From Acidimicrobiales bacterium (GTDB taxonomy: Bacteria > Actinomycetota > Acidimicrobiia > Acidimicrobiales > JBBRAZ01): a stretch of DNA of 64,000 nt. Made by a program: the position numbers and the translations under genes. The notes beneath the pieces are model-generated. The model ran no database searches. It saw nothing but the letters and a program-made list of their open reading frames with translations, and was not told where the DNA came from. Shown in pieces: positions 1-51,087 of the stretch (its first letter is position 1; each line of letters opens with the position of its first letter). Location of the stretch: assembly GCA_038206295.1 (NCBI GenBank), contig JBBRAZ010000005.1:50447-114446 (forward strand). Reading direction: 5' to 3'.

Positions 1-2
1 AT

Positions 3-1316
3 CACCTCGACGAGCTGCGCCGCGACCCGATCGGCCTGCTGTGGCGGGTGCGCGAGGAGTGCGGCGACGTCGGCTCGTTCGGCCTCGGCGCCAACGACGT
101 CGTGCTGCTCACCGGACCGGAGGCCAACGAGGTGTTCTTCCGCGCCGAGGAGGAGGTCCTCGACCAAGCCGAGGCGTACCCGTTCATGAAGCCGGTGTTC
201 GGCGAGGGCGTGGTGTTCGACGCCTCGCCCGAGCGCCGACGCGAGATGCTCCACAACCAGGCGTTGCGCGACAAGTTCATGCGCGGCCACGCGGAGACCA
301 TCGCCGCGGAGGTGGAGCGCATGGTCGGCGCGTGGGACGACGAGGGCGAGATCGACCTCCTCGACTGGTTCGCCGAGCTGCTCATCTACACGTCGTCGGC
401 GTGCCTCATCGGCCAGCGGTTCCGCGAGGAGCTCGACGGCCGCTTCGCCCACCTCTTCCACGACCTGGAGCAGGGCACCGACGCCCTGGCCTTCGTCGAC
501 CCCTATGCCGACATCGCCTCGTTCCACCGCCGCGACGCGGCGCGCGTCGAGCTGGTCGAGCTCATCGAGGGGATCATGGCGCGCCGCCGCGACGAGCCGA
601 CACCGGCCGATGACGACCGCGACCTGCTCGACGTGCTGCTGTCGATCCCGAACGAGGACGGCACGCCGCGGTTCCTCGCCGATGAGGTGACCGGCATGTT
701 CATCTCGATGATGTTCGCCGGGCACCACACCACCTCGGGCACCGCGGCGTGGACCCTCATCGAGCTGCTGCGCCAACCCGACCAGATGGCGGCGGTGGTC
801 ACCGAGCTCGACGGCCTGCTCGCCGATGGCAGCGAGGTGAGCTACCAGGCGCTGCGGGCCATGCCGACGATGGAGTCCGCCATCAAGGAGGCGCTGCGGC
901 TGCACCCGCCGCTCATCCTGCTGCTGCGCCTCGCCAAGGCGGACCTGGAGGTCTGCGGCACGTACATCGCGGCGGGCAAGCTGGTGGGCGCCACCCCGGC
1001 GGTGTCCAACCGCCTGCCCGAGGTGTTCCCCGAGGCCGACGCCTTCGTTCCCGAGCGCTACCTCGACCCGCGCCAGGAGGACCTCGCCAACCCGTGGGCG
1101 TGGATCCCCTTCGGCGCCGGCCGCCACCGCTGCGTCGGCGCCGCCTTCGCCATGATGCAGCTCAAGGCCCTGTTCGGGATCTTGCTGCGGGAGTGGACCT
1201 TCGAGCTGGCGCAGGCGCCGGACACCTACCGCAACGACCACTCCAAGATGGTGGTGCAGCTCGCCCAGCCCTGCGTCGTGCGCTACCGACGCCGCACCGA
1301 CGTCGGAGCGTCGTGA
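3..1316 (+). CDS. cyp51: Cytochrome P450 CYP51 (sterol 14-alpha-demethylase family), 5' end cut by window edge
   Basis: The frame is open back to base 3 (HLDELRRDPIGLLWRVREECGDV...). It is nearly colinear with my memory of M. tuberculosis CYP51, including the heme-Cys loop FGAGRHRCVGAAFA and the C-terminus HSKMVVQLAQPCVVRYRRR. Confidence 0.93.
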   Translation, partial: HLDELRRDPIGLLWRVREECGDVGSFGLGANDVVLLTGPEANEVFFRAEEEVLDQAEAYPFMKPVFGEGVVFDASPERRREMLHNQALRDKFMRGHAETIAAEVERMVGAWDDEGEIDLLDWFAELLIYTSSACLIGQRFREELDGRFAHLFHDLEQGTDALAFVDPYADIASFHRRDAARVELVELIEGIMARRRDEPTPADDDRDLLDVLLSIPNEDGTPRFLADEVTGMFISMMFAGHHTTSGTAAWTLIELLRQPDQMAAVVTELDGLLADGSEVSYQALRAMPTMESAIKEALRLHPPLILLLRLAKADLEVCGTYIAAGKLVGATPAVSNRLPEVFPEADAFVPERYLDPRQEDLANPWAWIPFGAGRHRCVGAAFAMMQLKALFGILLREWTFELAQAPDTYRNDHSKMVVQLAQPCVVRYRRRTDVGAS

Positions 1317-1516
1317 TGGGATGGCGAATCGCGGTCGACGAGGTGCTGTGCCAGGGCCACGCGGTGTGCGAGTCCGAGGCGCCGGAGGTCTTCGAGGTGC
1401 CCAAGCACGGCAAGGTCGTCGTGCTCGACGCCACGCCTCCCGATGACCAGCGCGCCGCGGTGGCGCTCGCCGTGCAGTACTGCCCGACCCATGCCATCAC
1501 CATCCAGGAGGACTGA
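1316..1516 (+). CDS. Small ferredoxin (single-cluster, 3Fe-4S type), P450 redox partner
   Basis: 66 aa (MGWRIAVDEVLCQGHAVCESEAPEVF...QYCPTHAI) with the CxxHxxC...CP cluster motif. Its ATG overlaps the cyp51 stop (ATGA). The position matches fdx next to cyp51 in mycobacteria. Confidence 0.85.
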   Translation: MGWRIAVDEVLCQGHAVCESEAPEVFEVPKHGKVVVLDATPPDDQRAAVALAVQYCPTHAITIQED

Positions 1517-2076
1517 TGCCCAGCTACCCCCGCGCCGAGCTCGAGGAGATGGTGGAGCGCTGGCTGCAGGCCAACCGCGACGCCGAGGCCGCCGGCGACT
1601 GGAAGCCCATGGCCGAGCTGTACACGCCCGATGCCACCTACGGCTGGAGCTACGGCCCCGGAACCGACTTCATGGCCGTGGGCCGCGACCAGATCCGCGA
1701 CATCGCGCTCGGCACCGAGATGGAGGGCCTGGATGGGTGGCAGTACCCGTACGAGGAGATCCTCATCGACGAGGTCAAGGGGCAGGTCGTCGGCTTCTGG
1801 CGCCAGGTCGCCGATGCGACGCGAGCCGATGGCACCCACTACGAGATCGCCGGCATCGGCGGCTCGTGGTTCCGCTACGGCGGCGACGCCATGTGGTCGT
1901 GGCAGCGCGACTGGTTCGACTTCGGCAACGCGGCGGCGATCTTCATGGAGATGATGAGCGACGGTGCGCTGTCCGAACCGATGGTGGCGCGCATGCACCG
2001 CTCGATGGAGCCGAACCGCCCCGGCTACCACCCGGCGTTCCGAGCCCCGGTGCAGCTGTGGGAGGTGCCCGGGTGA
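1516..2076 (+). CDS. SnoaL/NTF2-like fold protein
   Basis: 186-aa ORF. Its ATG shares one nucleotide with the ferredoxin stop (TGATG). The N-terminus ELEEMVERWLQANRDAEAAGDWKPMAELYTPDATY is typical of NTF2-like proteins. Codon third positions are strongly GC. Confidence 0.7.
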   Translation: MPSYPRAELEEMVERWLQANRDAEAAGDWKPMAELYTPDATYGWSYGPGTDFMAVGRDQIRDIALGTEMEGLDGWQYPYEEILIDEVKGQVVGFWRQVADATRADGTHYEIAGIGGSWFRYGGDAMWSWQRDWFDFGNAAAIFMEMMSDGALSEPMVARMHRSMEPNRPGYHPAFRAPVQLWEVPG

Positions 2077-3563
2077 GCGCAGGCGACGGCGAGGCGCTCG
2101 CAGCGCTCGGCGACCTCGGCGTGCTGCTCGTCGACGGCGAGCTGCGCCCGGCTGGCGGCGGCGGCACGTTCACCACCGTGGACCCCACCACCGAGGAGGT
2201 GCTGGGCGCCGCGGCGGACGGCGTCGCAGCAGACCTCGACGCCGCGCTCGACGCGGCGCGCCGCGCCTTCGACGAGTCGTCGTGGAGCACCGACGTCGAG
2301 CTGCGGGCGCGGTGCCTGCGCCAGCTGCGCGACGCCATGGTCGGCCACGCCGAGGAGCTGCGCGACCTGGCGGTGTGCGAGGTCGGGGCGCCCGTCTTCC
2401 TCACCAGCGGCGCGCACCTCGAGGCCCCCGTGCAGGACCTGGGGTGGATGGCGGATCTGGCCGAGTCCTACGAGTGGCAGCGCGACCTCGGCGAGGCGGC
2501 CCCGATGGGCATGCCCACGCACCGCTACGTCGTGCGCGAGGCCGCCGGGGTGGTGGGCGCCATCACGCCGTGGAACTTCCCCAACCAGATCAACCTGGCC
2601 AAGGTCGGCCCGGCGCTCGCCGCGGGCTGCACCGTGGTGCTGAAGCCGGCGCCCGACACGCCGTGGTGCGCGTCCGCGCTCGCTCGCCTCGCGGCGACCG
2701 AGACCGACCTGCCGCCCGGCGTGCTCAACATCGTGACGTCCTCGGATCACGCGCTGGGCGCGCAGCTGGCAGCCGATCCTCGCGTGGACCTCGTCTCGTT
2801 CACCGGCTCGACGGCGACGGGCCGATCGGTGATGCGCAGCGCAGCCGAGCGCATCGGCCGGGTGTTCCTCGAGCTGGGCGGCAAGTCGGCGGTCCTCGTG
2901 CTCGACGACGCCGACCTGGCCGCTGCCTGCTCGCTCGCCGCGTTCACCGCCTCGACCCACGCCGGCCAGGGCTGCGCCATCACCACGCGCCTGGTGGTGC
3001 CTCGTGCTCGCTACGACGAGGCCGTCGAGGCCGCGGCGGCGACGATGGGCGCGCTCGGGGCGAAGGATCCGCGCGAGCCCGGCACCGTGTGCGGGCCGCT
3101 CATCTCCGCTCGCCAGCGCGAGCGCGTCGAGGGCTACCTGGCCCTGGCGTTGGCCGAGGGCGGCACGTTCGCCTGCGGTGGCGGGCGGCCCGAGGGAAGC
3201 GAGCGCGGCTTCTTCGTGGAGCCGACGGTGATCGCCGGGCTCGACAACGGCTCACGTGTCGCGCGCGAGGAGATCTTCGGCCCGGTGCTGACGGTCATCG
3301 CGCACGACGGTGACGACGACGCGGTGCGCATCGCCAACGACTCGCCGTACGGCCTGTCGGGCGCGATCAGCTCGGGCGACGAGGAGCGGGCGTGGTCCGT
3401 GGCGCGCCGGGTGCGAACCGGGACGATGAGCATCAACGGCGGCGTCTGGTACGCCGGCGACGTCCCCTTCGGTGGGTACAAGCAATCCGGCATCGGCCGG
3501 GAGATGGGCGTGGCCGGCTTCGAGGAGCACCTCGAGACCAAGGCCGTGGCCGTCGGGATCTGA
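2073..3563 (+). CDS. NAD(P)-dependent aldehyde dehydrogenase
   Basis: GTG start overlaps the upstream stop (GTGA). ALDH motifs present: ITPWNFP, FTGSTATG, ELGGKSA, catalytic-Cys region HAGQGCA, EEIFGPVL. The longer track ORF (1443..) overlaps upstream genes and was rejected. Confidence 0.9.
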   Translation: MSAGDGEALAALGDLGVLLVDGELRPAGGGGTFTTVDPTTEEVLGAAADGVAADLDAALDAARRAFDESSWSTDVELRARCLRQLRDAMVGHAEELRDLAVCEVGAPVFLTSGAHLEAPVQDLGWMADLAESYEWQRDLGEAAPMGMPTHRYVVREAAGVVGAITPWNFPNQINLAKVGPALAAGCTVVLKPAPDTPWCASALARLAATETDLPPGVLNIVTSSDHALGAQLAADPRVDLVSFTGSTATGRSVMRSAAERIGRVFLELGGKSAVLVLDDADLAAACSLAAFTASTHAGQGCAITTRLVVPRARYDEAVEAAAATMGALGAKDPREPGTVCGPLISARQRERVEGYLALALAEGGTFACGGGRPEGSERGFFVEPTVIAGLDNGSRVAREEIFGPVLTVIAHDGDDDAVRIANDSPYGLSGAISSGDEERAWSVARRVRTGTMSINGGVWYAGDVPFGGYKQSGIGREMGVAGFEEHLETKAVAVGI

Positions 3564-3580
3564 GCGAGGGAGCGCAGCAC

Positions 3581-4333
3581 ATGGGCAGGCACGACTTCTC
3601 GGGCAAGGTGAGCATCGTCACCGGCTCGGCGGGCGGCATCGGCGAGGCGTACGCGCGTGCGCTTGCCGATGCCGGGGCGTCGGTGGTGATCGCCGACATC
3701 GACGAGGCGAAGGCGGCCGCGGTGGCGGCGTCGATCGTCGACGGCGGCGGCTCGGCGATCGCCGTGCGCGTGGACGTCAGCGACGAGGCGTCGACGCAGG
3801 CCATGGCGGCCGCCACGGTCGACGCGTTCGGGGGCATCGACCACCTGGTGAACAACGCGGCGATCTACGGCGACATGAAGATCGACGGGCTGCTCAGCAT
3901 CGACTGGGACTACTACCGCCGGTTCATGGCGGTGAACATGGATGGCGCGCTGCTGTGCACGCGGGCGTGCCGCGATGAGCTGGTGAAGCGCAAGGGCTCG
4001 ATCGTCAACCAGTCGTCGACCGCGGCGTGGGTGTACGCCGGCTTCTACGGGCTGGCCAAGGTCGGCGTCAACGGCCTCACGCAGCAGCTGGCGCAGGAGC
4101 TCGGCTGGGCGAAGGTGCGGGTCAACGCCATCGCGCCGGGACCGATCGACACCGACGCCACGCGCAACGTGGTGCCCGCCGAGATGGTGGACGCCATCGT
4201 GGCCGGCCTCGCCATCAAGCGGCGCGGCACGCCCGATGACCTGGTGGGCACGTGCCTGTTCCTGCTGTCGGACGAGTCGCGGTGGATGACCGGCCAGATC
4301 ATCGCCGTCGACGGCGGACAGGTGATCCGATGA
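3581..4333 (+). CDS. Short-chain dehydrogenase/reductase (SDR)
   Basis: KVSIVTGSAGGIGEAYA Rossmann motif, NNAA motif, YGLAKVGV (YxxxK). The ATG at 3581 follows the ALDH stop by 17 nt. Confidence 0.88.
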   Translation: MGRHDFSGKVSIVTGSAGGIGEAYARALADAGASVVIADIDEAKAAAVAASIVDGGGSAIAVRVDVSDEASTQAMAAATVDAFGGIDHLVNNAAIYGDMKIDGLLSIDWDYYRRFMAVNMDGALLCTRACRDELVKRKGSIVNQSSTAAWVYAGFYGLAKVGVNGLTQQLAQELGWAKVRVNAIAPGPIDTDATRNVVPAEMVDAIVAGLAIKRRGTPDDLVGTCLFLLSDESRWMTGQIIAVDGGQVIR

Positions 4334-5250
4334 TGGCGCGGGGCGTCGAGCGCTCGCCGGCCGCGGTCGGCTTCATCGGCCTCGGGCAGATCGGCGCGCC
4401 GATGGCCACGCACCTGCTGGGGTGGCCCGGCGGGCTCGTGGTGCACGACCTCCGCCCCGAGGCGGTGGAGCCCCTGGTGCGCGGGGGAGCGACGGAGGCC
4501 GAGTCGATCGCCGCGCTGGCGTCGGTGTGCGGGGTCATCTCGGTCATGGTGCGCGACGACGACCAGGTGTGGGACGTCGTGGCCGGTCCCGAGCGCGACG
4601 GCACCGCCGGCATCCTCGCCAGCGCGGCGCCCGGCACGGTCGTCGCGGTGCACTCCACGATCGGGGCGGACACCGCCGAGGCGCTCGAGGAGCTGGCCCG
4701 TCGCTTCGACGTGCACGTGGTCGACGCGCCGGTGAGCGGCGGGTTCATGGGCGCGCACGCCGGGACCTTGGCGGTGCTCGTGGGCGGCGACTCGCTGGCG
4801 GTCGACCGCTGCCGGCCGACGTTCGACCTGTGGGCCGGCCTCGTGGTCCACCTCGGGCGGATCGGCAACGGCACCCGCGGGAAGCTGGCGCGTAACCTCC
4901 TGCACTTCGTGGCCTTCGGCGCCGCGTTCGAGGCGTCGCGGCTGGCAGAGGCGGCCGGGCTCGACCTCCAGCTCCTGGCGCAGGTGGTGAAGCACTCCGA
5001 CGCCATCACCGGCGGGCCGGGGGCGATCTTGGTGCGGCGCGCCACGGGGCCTCTGGCTGCCGATGATCCGCTGCGGCCGATCTTCGAGCACACGCGGGAC
5101 CTGGGGGAGAAGGACCTGCGCCTGGCGCTCGAGCTCGGTGCCGAGCTCGGGGTGGATCTGCCGCTGGGCACGCTGGCGCTCGAGGTGCTGGCGGACGGCC
5201 TCGGCGTGGGGCGCAGCGATGGCAGCGACGAGGAGGGGAGCAGCACGTGA
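4330..5250 (+). CDS. NAD(P)-binding 3-hydroxyisobutyrate/6-phosphogluconate dehydrogenase-family oxidoreductase
   Basis: VGFIGLGQIGAPMATHL dinucleotide-binding N-terminus and VDAPVSGG motif. The ATG overlaps the SDR stop (ATGATG). Confidence 0.85.
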   Translation: MMARGVERSPAAVGFIGLGQIGAPMATHLLGWPGGLVVHDLRPEAVEPLVRGGATEAESIAALASVCGVISVMVRDDDQVWDVVAGPERDGTAGILASAAPGTVVAVHSTIGADTAEALEELARRFDVHVVDAPVSGGFMGAHAGTLAVLVGGDSLAVDRCRPTFDLWAGLVVHLGRIGNGTRGKLARNLLHFVAFGAAFEASRLAEAAGLDLQLLAQVVKHSDAITGGPGAILVRRATGPLAADDPLRPIFEHTRDLGEKDLRLALELGAELGVDLPLGTLALEVLADGLGVGRSDGSDEEGSST

Positions 5251-5639
5251 GCGAGGATCCACGACGGGCCCGGGGGCTCGAGCAGATGAAGGCCGTCTAC
5301 GGCTGGGACATCGGCGAGGTGCACGGCGACTTCCTGGCCGCGACCGTCGACCACCTCTTCGGCGACGTGTGGGCGCGCGACGGCATGTCGCTGCGAGAGC
5401 GGCGGCTGCTGCTGCTCGGCGTGCTGGCCGGGCAGGGCAAGGGCGACGTGCTGGGCATCCAGGTGGACGCCGCGCTGCGCCAGGGCGACCTGACGCCCGA
5501 TGACCTCGAGGACGTGGTGCAGCTCGTGGCGCACTACGCCGGGTGGCCGATGGGGGCGACGCTGAACCAGATCGTGATGGAGGCGGTGGCGCGGAACCAG
5601 CCGCCGACCGACGCGGCGGCCGACGGCGACGAGGCCTGA
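5247..5639 (+). CDS. Carboxymuconolactone decarboxylase (CMD/AhpD-like) family protein
   Basis: 130 aa. GTG start overlaps the upstream stop (GTGA). The sequence DHLFGDVWARDGMSLRERRLLLLGVL...VAHYAGWP is typical of the CMD family. Confidence 0.8.
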   Translation: MSEDPRRARGLEQMKAVYGWDIGEVHGDFLAATVDHLFGDVWARDGMSLRERRLLLLGVLAGQGKGDVLGIQVDAALRQGDLTPDDLEDVVQLVAHYAGWPMGATLNQIVMEAVARNQPPTDAAADGDEA

Positions 5640-5655
5640 TGGGGGACCGGCGCTG

Positions 5656-6978
5656 ATGTCCGTCGAGGACCTGGGGCGCGCCGAGCTGGCGACCCTCGTG
5701 CGCGAGCACCTGCTCGCCGGGCACCTCATCGACCGCGCCGGCATGCCGCACGTGCTGGGGGCGCACGGCGCCGATGGCATGGGTGCGGTCGCCATCGACG
5801 AGTGGATGGGCGCCAGCCCCGTGTACTCGCGACGGATGCGCACGCTGCTGCGCATCGAGGGCGACGACGTCGAGGCGATCTTCAAGGGGATGCAGCTCGA
5901 CATCGGGGCGCCGCCGCAGTTCCTCGACTTCCGCTACGAGGTGATCGACGCCACCCGCGGCGAGTTCCGCTTGGCGAGCTGCGGCGCGCTGCTGGACGCG
6001 GAGCCGATGGGCGACGAGATCGTGCACCTCATGTGCCACACCATCGAGGACCCGACGATGGACGCCACCGCGTGGGCCACGAACCCGCGAGCGCGGATGC
6101 GCCCGGCGCACCGGCCGCCGCGGGTGCCCGGCGAGCACGAGGAGCACTGCCGGTGGGTGGTGACGATCGACCCGGAGGTGGAGCCGGTGCCCGAGCCGGC
6201 GCCGGTGGCGCGCGTGCTCGCCACGCAGGCCGCTCAGCTGCCGCTGGCGGACCCCGGCGCGGTGCGGTCGCTCGCAGGTGACGACGAGGGGGCGACCGCT
6301 TACGACGGTGCGCTGCAGGACGACATCGACCTGGCGGGGTTCGCTCGCCCGACGTTGGTGGCGGTCGACGACGAGGTGTGCCTGCAAGGGCACCTGCTGG
6401 TGCTGTCGGGGCTGATCGCGGTCGCGGAGCGCTGGGGGCACGAGCTGGCGACCGAGGTCGGGGTGCAGCAGCTGGTGGGATCTGCCGGGGTGGTGGCCGA
6501 GCGCCTGGTGAGCGCTCGGGGGCTCGCTATGCCGGGTGGCGGCGGCGTCGGGGGCGCCGAGGGGGGCGTGGGAGCCGCGGGCGCGATCGTCGAGCTGCTG
6601 GCGCTGCACCCGGCGCTCCTGCCGCAGCGGTACACCGGCGTGACGGTGGAGGCCGTGGACGCTGTCGGCGACGTGGCTGCGGGCGGGAGCGGCGCGACGG
6701 TGCGCCTGCGCCTCGCGGCCGACGCGCCAGCCCTCGCCGAAGCCGCGCCGGGCGGGTGGCTGATGCTGCTGGCGGACCCGGCCAGCGGAGCGGATGTGGC
6801 GCTCGATGCCATCGTGGCGGCGGTCGACCCGACGGCTCGGATGCGCCGCGTGGAGCCCGCCGTCGGCGACGCCGTCACGTGGGAGCTCGCCCACGACGTC
6901 GCACCGCTGCCCGAGCCGGGCGTCGTCTCGGTGGTGCGGTTCAGCACCGGCGCCGAGTTCCGCTTCGACGACCGCTGA
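5656..6978 (+). CDS. Hypothetical protein; Cys/His-containing N-terminal domain plus Ala/Gly-rich C-terminal half
   Basis: 440-aa ORF starting 16 nt after the CMD gene on the same strand. I recognise no family. The N-terminal ~190 aa look globular (…CGALLDAEPMGDEIVHLMCHTIEDP…EHCRWVV). Confidence 0.55.
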   Translation: MSVEDLGRAELATLVREHLLAGHLIDRAGMPHVLGAHGADGMGAVAIDEWMGASPVYSRRMRTLLRIEGDDVEAIFKGMQLDIGAPPQFLDFRYEVIDATRGEFRLASCGALLDAEPMGDEIVHLMCHTIEDPTMDATAWATNPRARMRPAHRPPRVPGEHEEHCRWVVTIDPEVEPVPEPAPVARVLATQAAQLPLADPGAVRSLAGDDEGATAYDGALQDDIDLAGFARPTLVAVDDEVCLQGHLLVLSGLIAVAERWGHELATEVGVQQLVGSAGVVAERLVSARGLAMPGGGGVGGAEGGVGAAGAIVELLALHPALLPQRYTGVTVEAVDAVGDVAAGGSGATVRLRLAADAPALAEAAPGGWLMLLADPASGADVALDAIVAAVDPTARMRRVEPAVGDAVTWELAHDVAPLPEPGVVSVVRFSTGAEFRFDDR

Positions 6979-7077
6979 GCCGGGCGGTCAACGAGTCGCT
7001 GCAGAGGCCTGGGGGCTACGGTCAGGCGCGGAGCCGCACACCGCGCTCGGGCAGCGACGTGCCGATAGGGTCCGCTC

Positions 7078-7533
7078 GTGGCCGACCGCGAACCCGATGC
7101 CGACACAGACGACGACACCGACGCCGACCAGCTGGACGATCCCGAGGCCCTCGCCGTCCTCGAGGTGCAGCGCCGGTTCTACGAGGCGTTCGAATCCCGC
7201 GATCTCGACGCCATGTCGGAGGTCTGGGAGCACAGCGATCGCGTCACCTGCGCCCACCCGGGATGGGCGCCGCTGCACGGCTGGGGCGCGGTCGTGGCGT
7301 CGTGGCTCGGCATCTTCTCGGGTCCGCAGCGCCTCCAGTTCATCGTCACCGACGAGCGCGCCGTCGTCGCCGGCGACATCGCGTGGGTGACCGCCGAGGA
7401 GAACCTCCTCGACGGCGCGGACGGGGCGGCGGTGGCCGCGATCAACCTCTACGCCCGCGACGACGAGGGGCGGTGGCGCATGGTCGCCCACCAGGGCGGT
7501 CCGGTCAGCCCCGAGGCGCCCCGCCAGCGCTGA
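7078..7533 (+). CDS. SnoaL-like/DUF4440 (NTF2 fold) protein with acidic N-terminal tail
   Basis: The sequence LEVQRRFYEAFESRDLDAMSEVWEHSDRVTCAHPGW...GRWRMVAHQ is typical of DUF4440/SnoaL_3. GTG start. Confidence 0.75.
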   Translation: MADREPDADTDDDTDADQLDDPEALAVLEVQRRFYEAFESRDLDAMSEVWEHSDRVTCAHPGWAPLHGWGAVVASWLGIFSGPQRLQFIVTDERAVVAGDIAWVTAEENLLDGADGAAVAAINLYARDDEGRWRMVAHQGGPVSPEAPRQR

Positions 7534-7649
7534 AGGTTTCCGGCGCCTGGCGTCTGCTGAGGAGGCCGGTGGGCGGTCGGCCCGACCACCCCGGTAGGCT
7601 CCGAATCGTCCGGCGGGCTGTCGCGGACGAGGGACCGAGGGGGTCGACC

Positions 7650-9056
7650 ATGACCGACACTGCTGATCGCACCGACCACGCGACCGCGTACGCCGAGGTG
7701 GTGCAGGGGGTCCGCGACGTCTACGCGTCCGGCCGCACCCGACCCATCTCGTGGCGCAAGGCGCAGCTCGACGGGATCCTTCGGATCCTCGTCGACCACG
7801 AGGACGAGCTCGTCGCGGCCCTTGCTGAGGACCTGGGCCGCCCCGGCGCCGAGGCCTTCCTCGCCGACATCGGCCACGCCCGCGTCGAGGTCAAGTACCT
7901 GCGCAAGCACGTCGCCGACTGGGCGAAGCCGCAGAAGGTGAACCCGGGCCTCACGTCGCAGCCGGGCAAGGGACGCATCATCGCCGAGCCCCTCGGCGTG
8001 GCGCTGATCATCGCCCCGTGGAACTACCCGGTGCAGCTCCTACTCGAGCCCCTCGCCGCCGCGGTCGCCGCCGGCAACTGCGTCGTGGCCAAGCCATCGG
8101 AGCTGGCGCCGGCGTGCTCGGCGGTGCTCGCCCGCCTCATCCCGCGCTACCTCGACGACGAGGCGGTCGTGGTGGTCGAGGGCGCGGTGCCCGAGACGAC
8201 AGCCCTGCTCGAGCAGCAGTTCGATCACATCTTCTTCACCGGGTCGACCGATGTCGGTCGCATCGTCATGCGCGCTGCGGCCGAGCACCTCACGCCGGTC
8301 ACCCTCGAGCTCGGTGGCAAGAGCCCGACCATCGTCGCCGCCGATGCCGACCTCGACGTCGCTGCCCGCCGCATCGCCTGGGGCAAGCTCCTGAACGCCG
8401 GCCAGACGTGCATCGCGCCTGACTACGTGCTGGCCGAGCGCTCCATCCGCGACGAGCTCGTCGACAAGATCGGCAAGGCCATCGACGGCTTCTACAAGGG
8501 CGACCCGAAGACGTCGGTCGACTACGGCCGCATCGTCAACGAGCGCCACCTCGGCCGCCTCCAGGGCCTGCTGGCGGACCACGGCGGCACCGTCGCCCTC
8601 GGCGGCGACGTCGACGAGAGCACGAAGTACCTGGCGCCGACGGTCGTGATCGACCCCGACGTCGACAGCAAGCTGATGAACGAGGAGATCTTCGGCCCGA
8701 TCCTGCCGGTGCTCGCCGTCGATTCGGTCGAGGAGGCCATCGGCTTCGTCACCGCCCGCCCCAAGCCGCTCGCGCTCTACGTCTACAGCCGCTCCGACGC
8801 GCTGGTCGACGACGTGCTGGCGCGGACCTCCTCGGGCGGCGCGTGCGTCAACCACTGCCTGATGCACATCGTGTCGGACAAGCTCCCGTTCGGCGGCGTG
8901 GGCCCGTCGGGCATGGGCGCCTACCACGGCAAGTCGGGCTTCGACGTCTTCAGCCACCACAAGTCGGTGCTGATCAAGTCCACGCGCCCGGACCCGCCGA
9001 TCATGTACCCGCCGTACACGGCGCTGGCCCAGAAGCTGATGCGCAAGCTCTTCTGA
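7650..9056 (+). CDS. Class-3-like (fatty/aromatic) aldehyde dehydrogenase
   Basis: Motifs IAPWNYP, FTGSTDVGR, ELGGKSP, NAGQTCIAPDY (catalytic Cys) and EEIFGPILP. ATG at 7650 lies within the longer track ORF. Confidence 0.9.
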   Translation: MTDTADRTDHATAYAEVVQGVRDVYASGRTRPISWRKAQLDGILRILVDHEDELVAALAEDLGRPGAEAFLADIGHARVEVKYLRKHVADWAKPQKVNPGLTSQPGKGRIIAEPLGVALIIAPWNYPVQLLLEPLAAAVAAGNCVVAKPSELAPACSAVLARLIPRYLDDEAVVVVEGAVPETTALLEQQFDHIFFTGSTDVGRIVMRAAAEHLTPVTLELGGKSPTIVAADADLDVAARRIAWGKLLNAGQTCIAPDYVLAERSIRDELVDKIGKAIDGFYKGDPKTSVDYGRIVNERHLGRLQGLLADHGGTVALGGDVDESTKYLAPTVVIDPDVDSKLMNEEIFGPILPVLAVDSVEEAIGFVTARPKPLALYVYSRSDALVDDVLARTSSGGACVNHCLMHIVSDKLPFGGVGPSGMGAYHGKSGFDVFSHHKSVLIKSTRPDPPIMYPPYTALAQKLMRKLF

Positions 9057-9078
9057 GCCCACCCCCTGCGCCCCCACC

Positions 9079-9194
9079 TCTGTGCGTACCTGAGTGAGCG
9101 TTTCGCGCACGCACCTACGCATGGACGCCCGGCTCGGCATCTGTGCGTACCTGAGTGCGCGTTTCGCGCACGCACCTACGCATAGACGCCCGGC
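9079..9194. repeat. Two tandem copies (61-bp period) of a hairpin-forming intergenic repeat
   Basis: tctgtgcgtacctgagtg(a/c)gcgtttcgcgcacgcacctacgcat(g/a)gacgcccggc occurs at 9079 and 9140 with only two differences. Each copy has imperfect inverted arms, tgcgtacctgagtg / cacgcacctacgca. Confidence 0.85.
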
Positions 9195-9225
9195 ATGGGG
9201 CGGAGTCGCTCGGTAGCCTCCGGCC

Positions 9226-10773
9226 ATGGCCGTGACCGAGACCTCCCGCCCCGACCCCGATGTCCACCGCGAGCACGTCGCCCAGGCGCGTGCCGCGCTG
9301 CTCGACCCCGCGGTCGAGAGGATCGTCGAGATGGTCATCGGCCACGACGCCGAGACCGACACCTTCGACGTGGCCGCACCCGACGGCAGCGTCCGCTTCG
9401 GTCGCACGCCCGATGGGGACCACTGGCGCTTCGAGGTGCTCGAGGTCGCTGGCCGCGACCCGCTCGGCAACCAGGACGCCGGCCACCTCGCCCCGATCGA
9501 AGCCGAGCTCGAGGTGCGCCACCCGCACCGCACCGCCAACGCCTACCCCTACGCCTTCGAGACGATCGCGCAGCTCTTCGACGCCGCGTCGCCGCCGGAT
9601 CTGATCTCGGTGCACACCGCGGCGCACAACTGGGAGGACCAGGGCGGGCATCGCGGCGAGCACGGCTCGCTGGATGTCATCCAGGCCCGCGCCCCGTTCA
9701 TCATCGCCGGCGCCGGCGTGCGCAGCGACGGCCTCGTCGACCGCTCGTGCCGCCTGGTCGACGTGGCGCCGACGGTCGCCGCGCTCATGGGCGTGGCCGA
9801 GCGCACCGGCACCGGCGAGAGCGGCCAGGTGCGCGAAGACGCGCTGCTGGCGCGCCAGGACGGCGACGTGCTGCGCGATGTGCTCGACGAGCGCGAGGCG
9901 GCGCCGCGCCACGTCGTGGGCTTCCTCCTCGATGGAGCGAACGCCAACGTGCTCTACGCGGCGGCGGCCTCGGGCCTGGCGCCGAACATCGCTCGGCTCA
10001 TGGCCATGGGCACCTCCTACCGGCACGGCGCGATGAGCTCGCTGCCCACCGTGACCTTGGCTAACCACACGTCGATCCTCACCGGCGCGCACCCCGGCCA
10101 CCACGGCATCCTCCACAACGCCTGGTGGGACCGCGGCACCCAGCAGCAGATCGTCACCAACTCGCCGGCGCACTGGATGACGGCGATGGCCGGGCTCGAC
10201 CCCGGCGTCGAGACGCTGTTCCAGGCCATCGAGCGCACCTGGCCCGGCGACGTCACCGCCTCGGTCAACGAGCCGTGCGACACCGGCGCGACGTACACGA
10301 CGATGGGCCGGCTGCGGGCGGGGGAGATGCCCGACCGCCCGCCGGCGGTCATCCCCCACACGACCGAGCGCTTCGTGCGCCCGGACAAGGAGTACACCTG
10401 GTCGACGAAGATCGACCACACCGCGGTCGAGCAGGTCGTCGGGTTGTGGAGCGGGCAGTACGGGGGGCGCGAGTGGCCGCTGCCGCGCTTCTCGTGGGTG
10501 AACTTCAGCCTCACCGATGCCGCGCTGCACGAGGGGGGACCGCACAGCGAGGTGGCCGAGGCCGCCATCCGCGACACCGACGGTCGCCTCGGCGAGGTGC
10601 TCGCCGCTGTCGAGCGCTCCGGGCGGTGGGATCAGACGGCGTTCTTCCTCGTGGCCGACCACGGGATGGAGGAGTCGAACCCCGAGGTCACCGGCAACTG
10701 GGCCGACGCCCTCGACGCCACCGGACTCGCGTACCGCGACGAGGGCTACGGCTTCATCTACGTCAACCCGTAG
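9226..10773 (+). CDS. Alkaline-phosphatase-superfamily enzyme (nucleotide pyrophosphatase/phosphodiesterase type)
   Basis: NPP-type motifs GFLLDGANANVL, SLPTVTLANHTSILTGAHPGHHGI and FFLVADHGME. The N-terminal 220 aa carry GEHGSL...APFIIAGAGV...VDVAPTVAALMGV, which normally lies C-terminal of the DHGM motif. Confidence 0.8.
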   Translation: MAVTETSRPDPDVHREHVAQARAALLDPAVERIVEMVIGHDAETDTFDVAAPDGSVRFGRTPDGDHWRFEVLEVAGRDPLGNQDAGHLAPIEAELEVRHPHRTANAYPYAFETIAQLFDAASPPDLISVHTAAHNWEDQGGHRGEHGSLDVIQARAPFIIAGAGVRSDGLVDRSCRLVDVAPTVAALMGVAERTGTGESGQVREDALLARQDGDVLRDVLDEREAAPRHVVGFLLDGANANVLYAAAASGLAPNIARLMAMGTSYRHGAMSSLPTVTLANHTSILTGAHPGHHGILHNAWWDRGTQQQIVTNSPAHWMTAMAGLDPGVETLFQAIERTWPGDVTASVNEPCDTGATYTTMGRLRAGEMPDRPPAVIPHTTERFVRPDKEYTWSTKIDHTAVEQVVGLWSGQYGGREWPLPRFSWVNFSLTDAALHEGGPHSEVAEAAIRDTDGRLGEVLAAVERSGRWDQTAFFLVADHGMEESNPEVTGNWADALDATGLAYRDEGYGFIYVNP

Positions 10774-26574: not shown

Positions 26575-27516
26575 ATGATGGGCCAGCTGGCCGAGGCCCG
26601 AGGGGGGACCGTGGTACCGATCAACGAAGGCCGTGTGTGCATCGTGACGGGCGCAGGGCGCGGCATCGGGCGGGAGCACGCCCTTCTGCTGGCGCGCACC
26701 GGTGCGAAGGTCGTGGTCAACGACCTCGGCGGGTCGATGGACGGCGACGGCCGTGCGCAGGGGCCGGCGCAGGAGGTGGTCGACGAGATCGTCGCCCTCG
26801 GCGGCGAGGCGGCGGCGAGCTTCGACGACATCTCCACGTGGGACGGCGCGCAGCGGCTCGTGGCGCAGGCCGTCGACACCTTCGGGCGCCTCGACGTGCT
26901 CGTGAACAACGCCGGCATCCTGCGCGACCGGATGCTGGTCAACATGACCGAGGCCGAGTGGGACGCGGTCATCACCGTGCACCTCAAGGGCACGTTCGCC
27001 CCCACCCACCACGCCGCCAACCACTGGCGTGAGCGCTCGAAGGCGGGCGATGACGTCGTCGCTCGCGTCATCAACACGTCGAGCCCGTCGGGCATCTACG
27101 GCAACATCGGCCAGACCAACTACGGCGCGGCCAAGGCCGGCATCGCGTCGTTCACGATCATCGCAGCGATGGAGCTGGCACGCTACGGCGTGACGGTCAA
27201 CGCCATCGCCCCCGCGGCGCTCACGCGGATGACCGAGAACCTCGGCATGGGACAGGCGCCAGACGATGTCAAGGAGCAGATGGCGCCGCGCTGGATCGCA
27301 CCCATCGTCACCTGGCTGGCCAGCCCCGAGTCCAGCGCCGTGACCGGACGGGTCTTCGACGTCTCCGGACGCGCCATCTCGGTGTCGGAGGGATGGCATC
27401 GCGGCCCGACCGCGACCCCGGTCGAGGACCCGCTCGAGCTGGGTGCGATCGTCAGCGAGCTGGTCGCGCACGCCCGACCGAACGCCGACATGTCCGGCCG
27501 CGACCGAACCGACTGA
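26575..27516 (+). CDS. SDR, MFE-2-type 3-hydroxyacyl-CoA dehydrogenase-like
   Basis: RVCIVTGAGRGIGREHALLLARTGAKVVVNDLGG, NNAGILRD, YGAAKAGI. The start is uncertain: ATG at 26575 or 26578, or GTG at 26611 preceded by GAGGGGGG. Confidence 0.85.
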   Translation: MMGQLAEARGGTVVPINEGRVCIVTGAGRGIGREHALLLARTGAKVVVNDLGGSMDGDGRAQGPAQEVVDEIVALGGEAAASFDDISTWDGAQRLVAQAVDTFGRLDVLVNNAGILRDRMLVNMTEAEWDAVITVHLKGTFAPTHHAANHWRERSKAGDDVVARVINTSSPSGIYGNIGQTNYGAAKAGIASFTIIAAMELARYGVTVNAIAPAALTRMTENLGMGQAPDDVKEQMAPRWIAPIVTWLASPESSAVTGRVFDVSGRAISVSEGWHRGPTATPVEDPLELGAIVSELVAHARPNADMSGRDRTD

Positions 27517-27572: not shown

Positions 27573-28415
27573 ATGCCCATCAACCCCGATGCCGTCGGCA
27601 CCAAGGGTGAGCCCGCCACCACCACCTGGACGTCGAAGGACTGCCTGCTCTACGCGCTCGGCGTCGGGGCCGGCACCGAGGAGCTGGCGTTCACCACCGA
27701 GAACTCCAACGGCATCGAGCAGCGTGCGCTGCCCACGCAGGCGGTCGTGCTCGCTGGGGGGATCATGAGCGCGATGCGCACCATCGGCTCGTTCAACCCG
27801 GCGATGCTCGTGCACGGCGAGCAGGGGATCGTGCTGCACCGCGAGATCCCCGTCGAGGGCACGGCGGTGTCGGTCGCCCAGATCACCGGCATCTTCGACA
27901 AGGGCAAGGGTGCGGTGGTCGAGCTCGAGATCGAGACGACGCTGGAGGGCACGGGCGAGCCGCTGTTCCAGAACCGCTTCGCCGCGTTCCTGCGCGGCGA
28001 GGGCGGCTGGGGCGGCGACCGGGGGCCATCGGGCGCACGCAACGAGGCGCCGGAGCGCGCCCCGGACCACCAGGTCACCTACCAGACGCGCATCGACCAG
28101 GCGCTGCTCTACCGCCTGTCGGGCGACCGCAACCCGCTGCACTCCGACCCGGAGTTCGCCAAGATGGCCGGCTTCGACCGGCCCATCCTCCACGGCCTGT
28201 GCACCTACGGCTTCACCGGCCGCGCACTGCTGCACGCCCTGTGCGACAGCGACCCGGCGCGCTTCGGCGGCATGGAGGGGCGCTTCAGCTCCCCGGTGAT
28301 GCCGGGCGAGTCGCTCACCGTGTCGATGTGGGACGACGGCGACGGCGCCATCTTCCAGACCACCGGCGAGGACGGGCGCGTGGTGCTCGACAACGGTCGG
28401 TGCACGGTCCGCTGA
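27573..28415 (+). CDS. MaoC-like (R)-specific enoyl-CoA hydratase/dehydratase (double hotdog)
   Basis: YALGVGAG...LYRLSGDRNPLHSDPEFAKMAGFDRPILHGLCTYG is the MaoC dehydratase signature. It follows the MFE-2-type SDR. Confidence 0.88.
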   Translation: MPINPDAVGTKGEPATTTWTSKDCLLYALGVGAGTEELAFTTENSNGIEQRALPTQAVVLAGGIMSAMRTIGSFNPAMLVHGEQGIVLHREIPVEGTAVSVAQITGIFDKGKGAVVELEIETTLEGTGEPLFQNRFAAFLRGEGGWGGDRGPSGARNEAPERAPDHQVTYQTRIDQALLYRLSGDRNPLHSDPEFAKMAGFDRPILHGLCTYGFTGRALLHALCDSDPARFGGMEGRFSSPVMPGESLTVSMWDDGDGAIFQTTGEDGRVVLDNGRCTVR

Positions 28416-50400: not shown

Positions 50401-51087
50401 ATGATGCAGCGGTTCCTCGCCCCGCCCGACGAGGGGCTGACCGATCACCGCCGCGAGCTCCGCCGCCTCGCGGACGCGGTGCGACGCACCATCGCCAGCA
50501 TGGTGCGCACCACCGCCCCGGTCGACGAGCTCGCCGCGCTGGCCGACGAGGCGACGCTGGTGGCCGAGCACATCGAGCGCTACCCCCACGGCACGATGTA
50601 CGAGGGCATCGCCGAGGCGGCCAACGCGGGCCCGGACCCGCACGCCGGGTTCGACCACAGCCCGTTCATTGGGCGGTCCAACCCGCTGGCGCCGCCGATG
50701 CAGCTGCGCGTCGACGACGACGGCACCGTCCGCGGCACCGTGCGGTTCGACGGTCCGTACGAGGGGCCGCCCGGCTGCGTGCACGGCGGGTTCGTCGCCG
50801 CGGTCTTCGATGAGCTGCTGGGCGCGGCCCAGTCCTCCAGCGGTCCGCCGGGGATGACGGGCACGTTGACGATCGTCTACCGGTCGCCGACGCCGCTGCA
50901 CACCGACCTGACGCTCGAGGGCGTGACGATTCGGCGCGACGGCCGCAAGATCTTCACCCGCGGCACGCTGCACGCTGGCGAGGTGCTGTGCGCGGAGGCC
51001 GAGGGCATCTTCATCTCGATCGACCTCTCGCGCTGGAAGGAGCTCAAGGAGGCCCGAGAGGCCGACCAGCGCGGCGACGCCGGCTGA
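50401..51087 (+). CDS. PaaI-family hotdog thioesterase
   Basis: PGCVHGGFVAAVFDELLGAA...GTLTIVYRSP...EAEGIFI is the typical PaaI pattern. The start is uncertain; in-frame candidates extend up to 50263. Confidence 0.78.
   Translation: MMQRFLAPPDEGLTDHRRELRRLADAVRRTIASMVRTTAPVDELAALADEATLVAEHIERYPHGTMYEGIAEAANAGPDPHAGFDHSPFIGRSNPLAPPMQLRVDDDGTVRGTVRFDGPYEGPPGCVHGGFVAAVFDELLGAAQSSSGPPGMTGTLTIVYRSPTPLHTDLTLEGVTIRRDGRKIFTRGTLHAGEVLCAEAEGIFISIDLSRWKELKEAREADQRGDAG

Follow-up and report, generated by a model that had tools for sequence, protein, structure and literature searches.

A translationally coupled CYP51 gene cluster in an Acidimicrobiales bacterium, probably the larger part of an actinobacterial operon for tailoring the sterol nucleus

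Why bacteria without sterol synthesis should possess CYP51, the sterol 14-alpha-demethylase, is a question that has stood since 1998. We address it here for a locus in an Acidimicrobiales bacterium (GenBank assembly GCA_038206295.1, contig JBBRAZ010000005.1), of which we analyzed a stretch of 64,000 nt, positions 50,447 to 114,446 of the contig (hereafter the window). Its first 7 kb encode a CYP51, a ferredoxin (fdx), an NTF2/SnoaL-like protein, an aldehyde dehydrogenase (ALDH), a short-chain dehydrogenase/reductase (SDR), a protein resembling 3-hydroxyisobutyrate dehydrogenase (HIBDH-like), a CMD-family protein and a 440-aa protein without known family (hyp). As a sterol-responsive unit of actinobacteria, the cluster is already known, and the first three of these genes (cyp51, fdx and the NTF2-like gene) have functions known from homologues. 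We consider it probable that the region represents the 3′ eight genes of an approximately eleven-gene operon for tailoring the sterol nucleus, in an Acidimicrobiia-type genome.

Judged by its sequence, the window's P450 is a member of the sterol 14-alpha-demethylase CYP51 family. It aligns to M. tuberculosis CYP51B1 (1e9x) over 434 residues without a gap, with 66% identity and a score of 650 bits, compared to 429 bits for the M. capsulatus CYP51 and approximately 200–244 bits for eukaryotic CYP51s; its score against Pfam p450 is 220 bits. Membership of the family is defined by at least 40% identity to named members and a full-length P450 fold, and the window protein has both. The alignment covers residues 18–451 of CYP51B1, placing about 17 N-terminal codons beyond the window edge. 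The B′ motif AYPFMKPVFGEGVVFDA (signature YxxF..P.FG..V.FD), the helix-I HT/S motif AGHHTTSG (within FAGHHTTSGT) and the heme-ligand motif FGAGRHRCVG, with the heme-thiolate stretch FGAGRHRCVGAAFA, are all present and align with the same motifs in 1e9x. In the literature, 14-alpha-demethylase activity on lanosterol or obtusifoliol has been shown for the mycobacterial and M. capsulatus CYP51 only.

We compared the surroundings of this gene with those of its relatives. A one-genome-per-species scan returned at least 556 CYP51 relatives, and the best 80 loci were analyzed; these are mostly metagenome-assembled genomes (MAGs) of Acidimicrobiales with 73–79% identity, together with Haloechinothrix, Actinophytocola, Actinomadura and Nocardia. 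Synteny was counted in 53 species-level loci where cyp51 is flanked by 8 kb or more in both directions, many of them related Acidimicrobiaceae MAGs, and a feature was counted when it lay within 10 kb. In 50 of the 53 loci, a ferredoxin gene lies directly 3′ of cyp51 and an NTF2 gene fills the next position, as in the window. The window's ferredoxin is a small, single-cluster, 3Fe-4S-type protein (Pfam Fer4_15, 47 bits; Fer4_13, 42 bits) with 56% identity to the cyp51-adjacent ferredoxin of M. avium, and it is the redox partner of the adjoining CYP51. In two loci (L083 8309-9970 and L085 4179-5831), CYP51 is fused in frame to the ferredoxin, yielding proteins of 550–553 aa; Methylococcus capsulatus has the same in-frame fusion. 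Nine further loci (L015, L014, L022, L019, L031, L053, L061, L070 and L071) hold candidate CYP51-ferredoxin fusions, with no stop codon between the two matches.

The NTF2-like gene begins at the ferredoxin stop codon. [quoted passage not shown] The same source finds the M. tuberculosis homologue to be active on sterols and identifies six pocket residues by mutagenesis (Y37, Y43, Y78, Y80, D133 and D136 in M. capsulatus numbering). The window protein keeps all six, as Y36, Y42, Y77, Y79, D132 and D135. When 70 NTF2 proteins encoded beside cyp51 were aligned, five of the six positions were invariant; the first is Phe in the Haloechinothrix homologue (L057), as reported in PMC13277303, and the register of the alignment is thereby secured. 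The window protein scores 29.9 bits against Pfam SnoaL_2 (cut-off 27), is the reciprocal best match of the M. avium protein at the Rv0762c position (55% identity), and shares 61% identity with the Haloechinothrix aidingensis homologue named in PMC13277303. From its position, its pocket residues and its homology, we predict that it is an 8,14-Bsr-type protein. An earlier note on this DNA, made from the sequence alone, had placed the gene in the NTF2 family; the family stands, and the description was incomplete, since the 8,14-sterol reductase role has been published (PMC13277303). Because the NTF2 gene encodes a reductase that acts on the CYP51 product, Cyp51, ferredoxin and NTF2 form an established sterol module.

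The 8,14-Bsr module of PMC13277303 consists of the identical three genes in the identical order. It is described there from Methylococcaceae, other proteobacteria, myxobacteria and Mycobacteriales, with one Pseudonocardiales homologue (Haloechinothrix) in passing; the Acidimicrobiia, to which the window belongs, are not among the groups named, nor does the source discuss the dehydrogenase and decarboxylase neighbors that are present in the window.

These neighbors continue the same transcriptional direction. The window has a G+C content of approximately 72%, and third-position GC profiling of positions 1..7000 yields a single clear reading frame per stretch, always on the + strand. All eight open reading frames were found where the earlier note had placed them, with third-position G+C of 0.85–0.97 in their own frames (Table 1). 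The junctions at 1316 and 1516 have the form TGATG, with a 1-nt overlap, and those at 2073 and 5247 have the form GTGA, with a 4-nt overlap, so that the ALDH and CMD genes start with GTG. The HIBDH-like gene starts within ATGA or TGATG at 4330/4333, with an alternative ATG at 4330. A gap of 17 nt (3564-3580) containing GAGGGAG separates the ALDH and SDR genes, and one of 16 nt (5640-5655) separates the CMD gene and hyp. The description of eight tightly coupled genes on the + strand is thus borne out, with overlaps of 1–4 nt or gaps of at most 17 nt throughout, and its family assignments are backed by Pfam and NCBIfam. The 'eight-gene operon' itself is very probably an artefact of the window edge, as three further genes precede cyp51 in four related loci (L081, L083, L085 and L086).

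Table 1. Genes of the cyp51 cluster in the window
Gene	Coordinates	Strand	Remarks
cyp51	3..1316	+	5′ end truncated by window edge
ferredoxin (fdx), 66 aa	1316..1516	+	Pfam Fer4_15, Fer4_13
NTF2/SnoaL-like	1516..2076	+	Pfam SnoaL_2
aldehyde dehydrogenase (ALDH), Rv0768/aldA type	2073..3563	+	NCBIfam TIGR04284
SDR, Rv0769 type	3581..4333	+	NCBIfam NF005853, Pfam adh_short_C2
HIBDH-like, Rv0770 type	4333 (or 4330)..5250	+	Pfam NAD_binding_2 + NAD_binding_11
CMD-family, Rv0771 type, 130 aa	5247..5639	+	Pfam CMD
440-aa protein without known family (hyp)	5656..6978	+	no Pfam/NCBIfam match

The closest relatives of the window's NTF2 protein are P0131 (82% identity, L081) and P0130 (80%, L083), and both are encoded within an eleven-gene co-directional array with 4-nt overlaps in the order TetR - P450 - SDR - CYP51 - fdx - NTF2 - ALDH - SDR - HIBDH - CMD - hyp. 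The same array was found in L085 and L086 through more distant homologues of the 440-aa protein; in L086 the ALDH gene comes after hyp. Since the nearest relatives have TetR, P450 and SDR genes before CYP51, the window's unit very probably comprises the last eight of about eleven genes, as read from L081, L083, L085 and L086. The upstream P450 of the arrays shares 56–59% identity with the P450 at the CYP123 position of M. avium. The co-directional order recurs in independent loci (L081, L083, L085, L086 and L071), and the arrangement is therefore more than chance.

Linkage of the downstream genes to bacterial CYP51 proved to be conserved, not rare. HIBDH-like and CMD genes are each found in 47 of the 53 loci (89%), the Rv0769-type SDR in 38 and the Rv0768-type ALDH in 32; 38 loci have three or more of these four accessory genes. 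The divergent form predominates: 41 of the 47 HIBDH-like genes lie upstream of cyp51 on the opposite strand. Co-directional accessory genes downstream of cyp51 are a recurrent minority arrangement (3/53 loci). Clustering of neighbor genes gave a conserved core of TetR - P450 (~400 aa) - SDR - cyp51 - fdx - NTF2. The linkage spans Acidimicrobiia, Pseudonocardiales (L057, L060 and L066), Nocardia (L067) and Mycobacterium (L084), and so two actinobacterial classes and several gene orders.

Palindromes lie just 5′ of the TetR gene that heads the array in L081 (AGACACGTGTCCAG, 5828-5850) and in L083 (CTGGACTCGTGTCCAG, 5713-5740), and they resemble the published LtmA/Rv0767c motif TGACAnnTGTCC. In the window, there were no matches to LtmA/Rv0767c-type operators or to palindromes of the L081/L083 type, which fits a single control region upstream of the window. 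In three loci a second CYP123-like P450 is encoded after the HIBDH-like gene or further downstream (L054 15649-16851, L051 13108-14307 and L057 13699-15012); these extra P450s suggest lineage-specific additional oxidation steps.

We then determined how the window relates to the mycobacterial Rv0762c-Rv0771 genes. The M. avium locus L084 was retrieved via the structure 3qha, and reciprocal best matches were computed between it and the window. Its left arm reads NTF2 - adhB - Rv0762c-like - fdx - cyp51 - SDR - P450 - TetR, and its right arm, divergent from the left, reads ALDH - SDR - HIBDH - CMD - purD. Seven reciprocal best matches support the orthology that the earlier note had proposed, with identities of 65% for cyp51, 56% for fdx, 55% for the Rv0762c-like gene, 70% for aldA, 66% for the SDR, 51–52% for the HIBDH-like gene and 42–43% for the CMD gene; the ALDH also passes TIGR04284. 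The note's statement that mycobacteria have these genes in two divergent units was likewise correct, as the order in L084 matches the Rv0762c-Rv0771 gene list of PMC10470581.

The mycobacterial cluster thus consists of cyp51, fdx and Rv0762c, of Rv0765c, cyp123 and Rv0767c, and of aldA, Rv0769, Rv0770 and Rv0771, arranged as two divergent units around a shared intergenic region, whereas in the window a single strand carries the genes, and stop and start codons overlap. The two mycobacterial halves are indeed fused into one unit of co-directional, coupled genes here. Like the mycobacterial cluster, the window's closest relatives also have the TetR gene, the CYP123-like P450 and the second SDR. 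The window carries the 440-aa tandem-domain protein, which has no counterpart in L084, whereas the M. avium locus has adhB-like and Rv0760c-like genes that are absent from the window cluster.

Published expression data tie both halves to sterols. In Mycobacterium sp. VKM Ac-1817D, both half-clusters were up 2.5- to 43-fold on phytosterol, including 35-fold for the ALDH, 16-fold for the SDR, 12-fold for the HIBDH-like gene, 7-fold for CYP51 and 43-fold for the TetR gene (PMC6593523, supplementary file 3), and the two divergent operons share a site assigned to the Rv0767c-type TetR regulator (PMC6593523). In M. tuberculosis, Rv0762c-Rv0771 form one co-regulated block (PMC10470581), and a putative Rv0767c-Rv0763c operon has been proposed, with a possible pathway involving CYP123 (PMC7947880). 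The M. smegmatis homologue of the Rv0767c-type TetR binds the mce4 promoter (PMC13139416), and the M. abscessus CYP123 hydroxylates steroids (PMC12799577). Because published transcriptomics shows that phytosterol induces both halves, the linkage was known in outline. Its conservation bears out the earlier note, whose framing was outdated, as the co-regulation (PMC10470581) and the phytosterol induction (PMC6593523) were already in print. In the literature that we searched, no reaction has been assigned to Rv0768-Rv0771.

The downstream proteins themselves retain the features expected of their families. The ALDH, of the NAD-dependent kind, scores 858.3 bits against TIGR04284 (aldehy_Rv0768; cut-off 775), the next family reaching 390 bits, under its own cut-off, and its catalytic motifs ELGGKS and GQGC are intact. 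The TIGR04284 family may have a link to mycofactocin, on which none of our readings depends. The SDR is a classical one, with 401 bits against NF005853 (cut-off 303), 207 bits against Pfam adh_short_C2, and an intact TGSAGGIG motif and S...YGLAK catalytic residues. When compared with the HIBADH (TIGR01692) and tartronate semialdehyde reductase equivalogs, the HIBDH-like protein scores 133.5 bits against TIGR01692 (cut-off 291.6) and 153 bits against NF008592 (cut-off 397); because it falls under every NCBIfam equivalog cut-off, it is not a true 3-hydroxyisobutyrate dehydrogenase. By sequence, it is a member of the beta-hydroxyacid dehydrogenase superfamily only, with intact DAPVSGG and GKLARN motifs. 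This superfamily includes 6-phosphogluconate dehydrogenase, an oxidative decarboxylase of a beta-hydroxyacid. The best PDB match of the HIBDH-like protein is 3qha, the M. avium protein, with 268 bits compared to 123 bits for the next.

The CMD protein scores 34.5 bits against Pfam CMD (cut-off 23). There is no cysteine in its sequence, and hence no AhpD CxxC motif; without cysteine, it is not an AhpD-type peroxidase. We rejected both PcaC and AhpD as identities for it, as TIGR02425 is far under its cut-off and Cys is absent. Together, the five downstream genes appear to be a conserved, sterol-induced module of predicted enzymes, whose chemistry we infer below.

The last of the five had been labeled 'hypothetical' by the earlier note. 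Its lack of a known family holds, as neither Pfam nor NCBIfam has a match; the protein is, however, a dedicated, cluster-specific member. Of its homologues, which number at least 2058, every one is annotated as hypothetical and none has a Pfam domain; no Pfam match, V4R included, was found at E-values up to 5 in 38 members of the family. Among 1.84 billion representative proteins, its N-terminal domain accounts for 476 clusters formed at 50% identity. Searches of the PDB with phmmer and with a profile gave only low-complexity noise from BurrH. An AlphaFold (AF2) model (pLDDT 90.7, pTM 0.92) has two similar alpha/beta domains, and the two halves of the protein are homologous by hhalign (probability 97.5%, E 5.6e-12), an internal duplication.

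A Foldseek search with the full-length model found nothing under E 0.2. With the N domain, the top matches were the phenol-sensor domains of DmpR/MopR, under significance (probability 0.93–0.94, E approximately 0.05–0.07, TM approximately 0.45), followed by H-NOX and Bet3; the best individual matches are 6iy8_B (E 0.053, probability 0.94, TM 0.45) and 7vqf (E 0.071). The N domain has no sequence similarity to this V4R, DmpR/MopR, H-NOX and Bet3 fold class. DmpR/MopR-type sensor domains hold a Cys-rich zinc site. In both long and short forms of the family, the N-terminal domain has invariant residues C109, C127, H128, H152 and C165 together with about 20 polar residues. The model hints at a V4R-like fold for a hydrophobic ligand, with a metal site, and the approximately 20 invariant polar residues suggest that the domain may be catalytic instead of simply binding a ligand.

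Homologues of the 440-aa protein occur within the same cluster in L081, L083, L085, L086, L071, L031, L061 and L070. In 27 loci of the divergent type, a stand-alone N half of approximately 238 aa heads the cyp51 operon (for example L022 6515-7288, L033 6616-7302 and L065 4243-4959), with all the invariant Cys, His and polar residues kept. In two Nocardia species (L072 12964-14972 and L080 15375-17383), a separate unit on the minus strand consists of fdx, NTF2 and a 440-aa-type gene, with a gene for a protein of approximately 535 aa behind it; cyp51 sits on the opposite strand about 4–6 kb away. Members of the 440-aa family can therefore accompany the reductase instead of the dehydrogenases.

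Based on these assignments, the first steps of the pathway would be those of close homologues, for which they have been shown. CYP51, reduced by the ferredoxin, would remove the 14-alpha-methyl group of lanosterol- or obtusifoliol-type sterols to give the delta-8,14-diene, which 8,14-Bsr would reduce and rearrange to the delta-8(14)-sterol. The ALDH, SDR, HIBDH-like, CMD and tandem-domain proteins would act on the same sterol, probably in cooperation with the CYP123-like P450 and the second SDR encoded just upstream of the window, and the upstream TetR repressor probably governs the whole unit. The purpose would be the conversion of exogenous 4,4,14-trimethyl sterols into substrates that can be catabolized.

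We propose, tentatively and on chemical logic only, that the downstream genes remove C-4 methyl groups oxidatively. The P450 would oxidize a C-4 methyl to the alcohol, an SDR or the P450 would take it to the aldehyde, and the ALDH would yield the 4-carboxylate. The resulting 3-hydroxy-4-carboxysterol would be a beta-hydroxyacid, whose 3-beta-hydroxyl the beta-hydroxyacid dehydrogenase or an SDR could oxidize to a beta-keto acid, and this would then decarboxylate, possibly aided by the CMD protein. The earlier idea of a stepwise methyl oxidation is chemically plausible. A C19 androstane-type product has no methyls at C-4 or C-14. According to a result cited in PMC13277303, a Mycobacterium given lanosterol forms a C19 8(14)-steroid. 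Since such a product is without C-4 methyls, some enzyme set must remove them.

The proposed chemistry, inferred here from that of the families, is the same, in its steps and in the enzyme activities that it calls for, as in eukaryotes, which employ SMO/ERG25, the 3-beta-HSD-decarboxylase ERG26 and the 3-ketoreductase ERG27, and in the bacterial SdmAB system: a methyl group becomes a carboxylate, the 3-hydroxyl is oxidized, and the beta-keto acid is decarboxylated. The protein families are entirely unlike those of these two systems, and a sequence relationship would not be expected. The SMO/ERG system has a di-iron oxidase and extended SDRs, and SdmAB has a Rieske oxygenase and a reductase, whereas the window-type set has a P450, an ALDH, a classical SDR, a beta-hydroxyacid dehydrogenase and a CMD protein. 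It is conceivable, if doubtful, that the upstream P450 and SDR together with the ALDH, SDR, HIBDH-like, CMD and tandem-domain proteins constitute a third, evolutionarily independent system for sterol C-4 demethylation, one that is soluble and P450-based.

Several points weigh against a sterol-tailoring operon of this kind or against its C-4 scheme. Hydroxylation by the M. abscessus CYP123 appears to take place near C-17 and not at C-4 (PMC12799577). The C-4 scheme is one of chemical logic, and the substrates of the five downstream proteins are predictions; the CMD protein reaches only 49.5 bits against the PcaC equivalog TIGR02425, compared to a cut-off of 155.7. The upstream P450, SDR and TetR genes lie outside the window. 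Among the well-flanked loci, whose counts are not independent given their relatedness, the ALDH is missing from 40% and the Rv0769-type SDR from 28%, and four of the 53 (Actinomadura and Nocardia) have none of the four accessory genes. Pfam scans covering most called genes of the window detected lipid-metabolism genes and no steroid ring-cleavage genes.

The downstream dehydrogenases could instead tailor the side chain (at the C-24 alkyl group of phytosterols, or by oxidizing their C-26/C-27) or oxidize and isomerize the same sterol at C-3 or C-17, and not act on C-4, which we regard as unlikely. HIBADH-type enzymes, from what is known of the family, act on termini resembling 3-hydroxy-2-methylpropanoate, similar to the oxidized end of a side chain, and the sterols in the inducing phytosterol mixture are 4-desmethyl and have alkylated side chains; the products of the M. 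abscessus CYP123 co-elute with 17-hydroxysteroids (PMC12799577). The known side-chain route, however, uses CoA thioesters, and the conserved cluster is without a CoA ligase, hydratase or thiolase, and the strict association of the cluster with CYP51 and 8,14-Bsr speaks for substrates that have kept nuclear methyls. We consider it quite improbable that the substrate of the cluster is a polycyclic or isoprenoid lipid other than a sterol, a possibility raised in PMC7947880, which also notes more than 1,000 CYP51 genes in bacteria without sterol synthesis. The window's neighborhood is rich in general lipid-metabolism genes, and CYP51 and 8,14-Bsr are non-essential in mycobacteria according to the literature; yet sterols are substrates for the CYP51 of mycobacteria and for the 8,14-Bsr homologue of M. 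tuberculosis, neither the signature motifs of CYP51 nor the pocket residues of Bsr have been lost from the window proteins, and the cluster is sterol-induced.

It is very improbable that the ALDH, SDR, HIBDH-like and CMD genes are a separate aldehyde or redox detoxification unit beside cyp51, with the fusion a rearrangement of no functional meaning. The M. tuberculosis block was noticed in a study of aldehyde stress, with a predicted ArsR-type regulator, yet that stress repressed the block and did not induce it (PMC10470581). The sizeable share of loci that lack the ALDH or SDR would suit such a unit, but the linkage has outlasted changes of gene order (divergent, co-directional, or, in L086, with the ALDH behind hyp) and is found in two actinobacterial classes; translation of the genes is coupled in the window, and phytosterol induces both halves together from a shared operator region. 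Part of an endogenous sterol biosynthesis pathway is the least credible role that we weighed, and we all but discount it, even though Cyp51-fdx-Bsr serves sterol biosynthesis in Methylococcaceae and myxobacteria (PMC13277303). The Pfam scans of most called genes in the window gave no squalene/oxidosqualene cyclase or squalene monooxygenase domain, no such genes occur within 10 kb of cyp51 in five annotated loci, and actinobacteria of this CYP51 clade are described as non-producers, including in PMC7947880; this lack of cyclase genes in the window and the five loci fits the earlier note's reading against sterol biosynthesis. The tailoring of exogenous sterols at the nucleus is the reading that we retain.

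The conserved block stops at position 6978. After a gap of 99 nt, a SnoaL_3 gene (7078..7533) and a class-3-like ALDH gene (7569..9056) follow on the + strand, and no homologue of either was found near cyp51 in any of the 80 loci. The ALDH is MdlD-like, with 415 bits under a cut-off of 550. We considered the SnoaL_3 protein as a counterpart of Rv0760c and rejected this, as a comparison with the Rv0760c-like protein of M. avium gave no match at E 1e-3; its PDB matches 3gwr and 3cnx carry generic or uncharacterized annotation only. In positions 1..9300, a scan gave no promoter-like sites and one terminator-like site, which is on the wrong strand and compares with 0.9 expected by chance; such scans are uninformative in a genome of this high GC. 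Neither Rfam families nor tRNAs were found across the whole window.

Further downstream, a 170-nt intergenic region contains a 55-nt tandem direct repeat, 96% identical (9079-9133 and 9140-9194), 5′ of a phosphodiesterase-like gene (9226..10773). Each copy includes an imperfect palindrome, GTGCGTAC...GCGCACGCAC, and the repeat could represent an operator that has been duplicated, or else a small repeat element. By the Pfam scans, the window contains lipid-metabolism, sulfate-assimilation and housekeeping genes. A run of lipid genes from 11366 to 33760 encodes an SDR, an acyl-CoA synthetase, a secreted lipase, an acyl-CoA dehydrogenase, a luciferase-like monooxygenase, a thioesterase, a WS/DGAT wax-ester synthase and an enoyl-CoA hydratase, which fits a lipid-storing Acidimicrobiia lifestyle. 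A classical SDR gene (~26590..27516, +), followed by an MFE-2/MaoC hydratase gene (27573..28415, +), forms a split MFE-2-like pair; the SDR gene overlaps the assigned 5′ end of a VanW-like gene on the other strand. Pairs of this split type serve to degrade branched or steroid side chains by beta-oxidation.

The new findings are modest. They consist of a co-linear form of the cluster from Acidimicrobiia with translational coupling, an additional, undescribed protein family tied to it, and neighborhood statistics from which the likely full gene set can be read. The co-linear operon has an apparently complete set of a regulator, two P450s, a ferredoxin, an 8,14-reductase, an ALDH, two SDRs, a beta-hydroxyacid dehydrogenase, a CMD protein and the new family, and at approximately 11 kb it would be a compact construct suited to the existing test system of lanosterol-producing E. 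coli. If the C-4 proposal is false, the cluster still comprises five conserved, sterol-induced enzymes shared with M. tuberculosis. If it is true, the cluster would bring new enzymology to a classic sterol reaction and explain how mycobacteria turn lanosterol into C19 steroids. Actinobacteria would then strip all three nuclear methyls from lanosterol-, cycloartenol- and obtusifoliol-type sterols for steroid catabolism, which would give bacterial CYP51 a physiological role in organisms that do not produce sterols.

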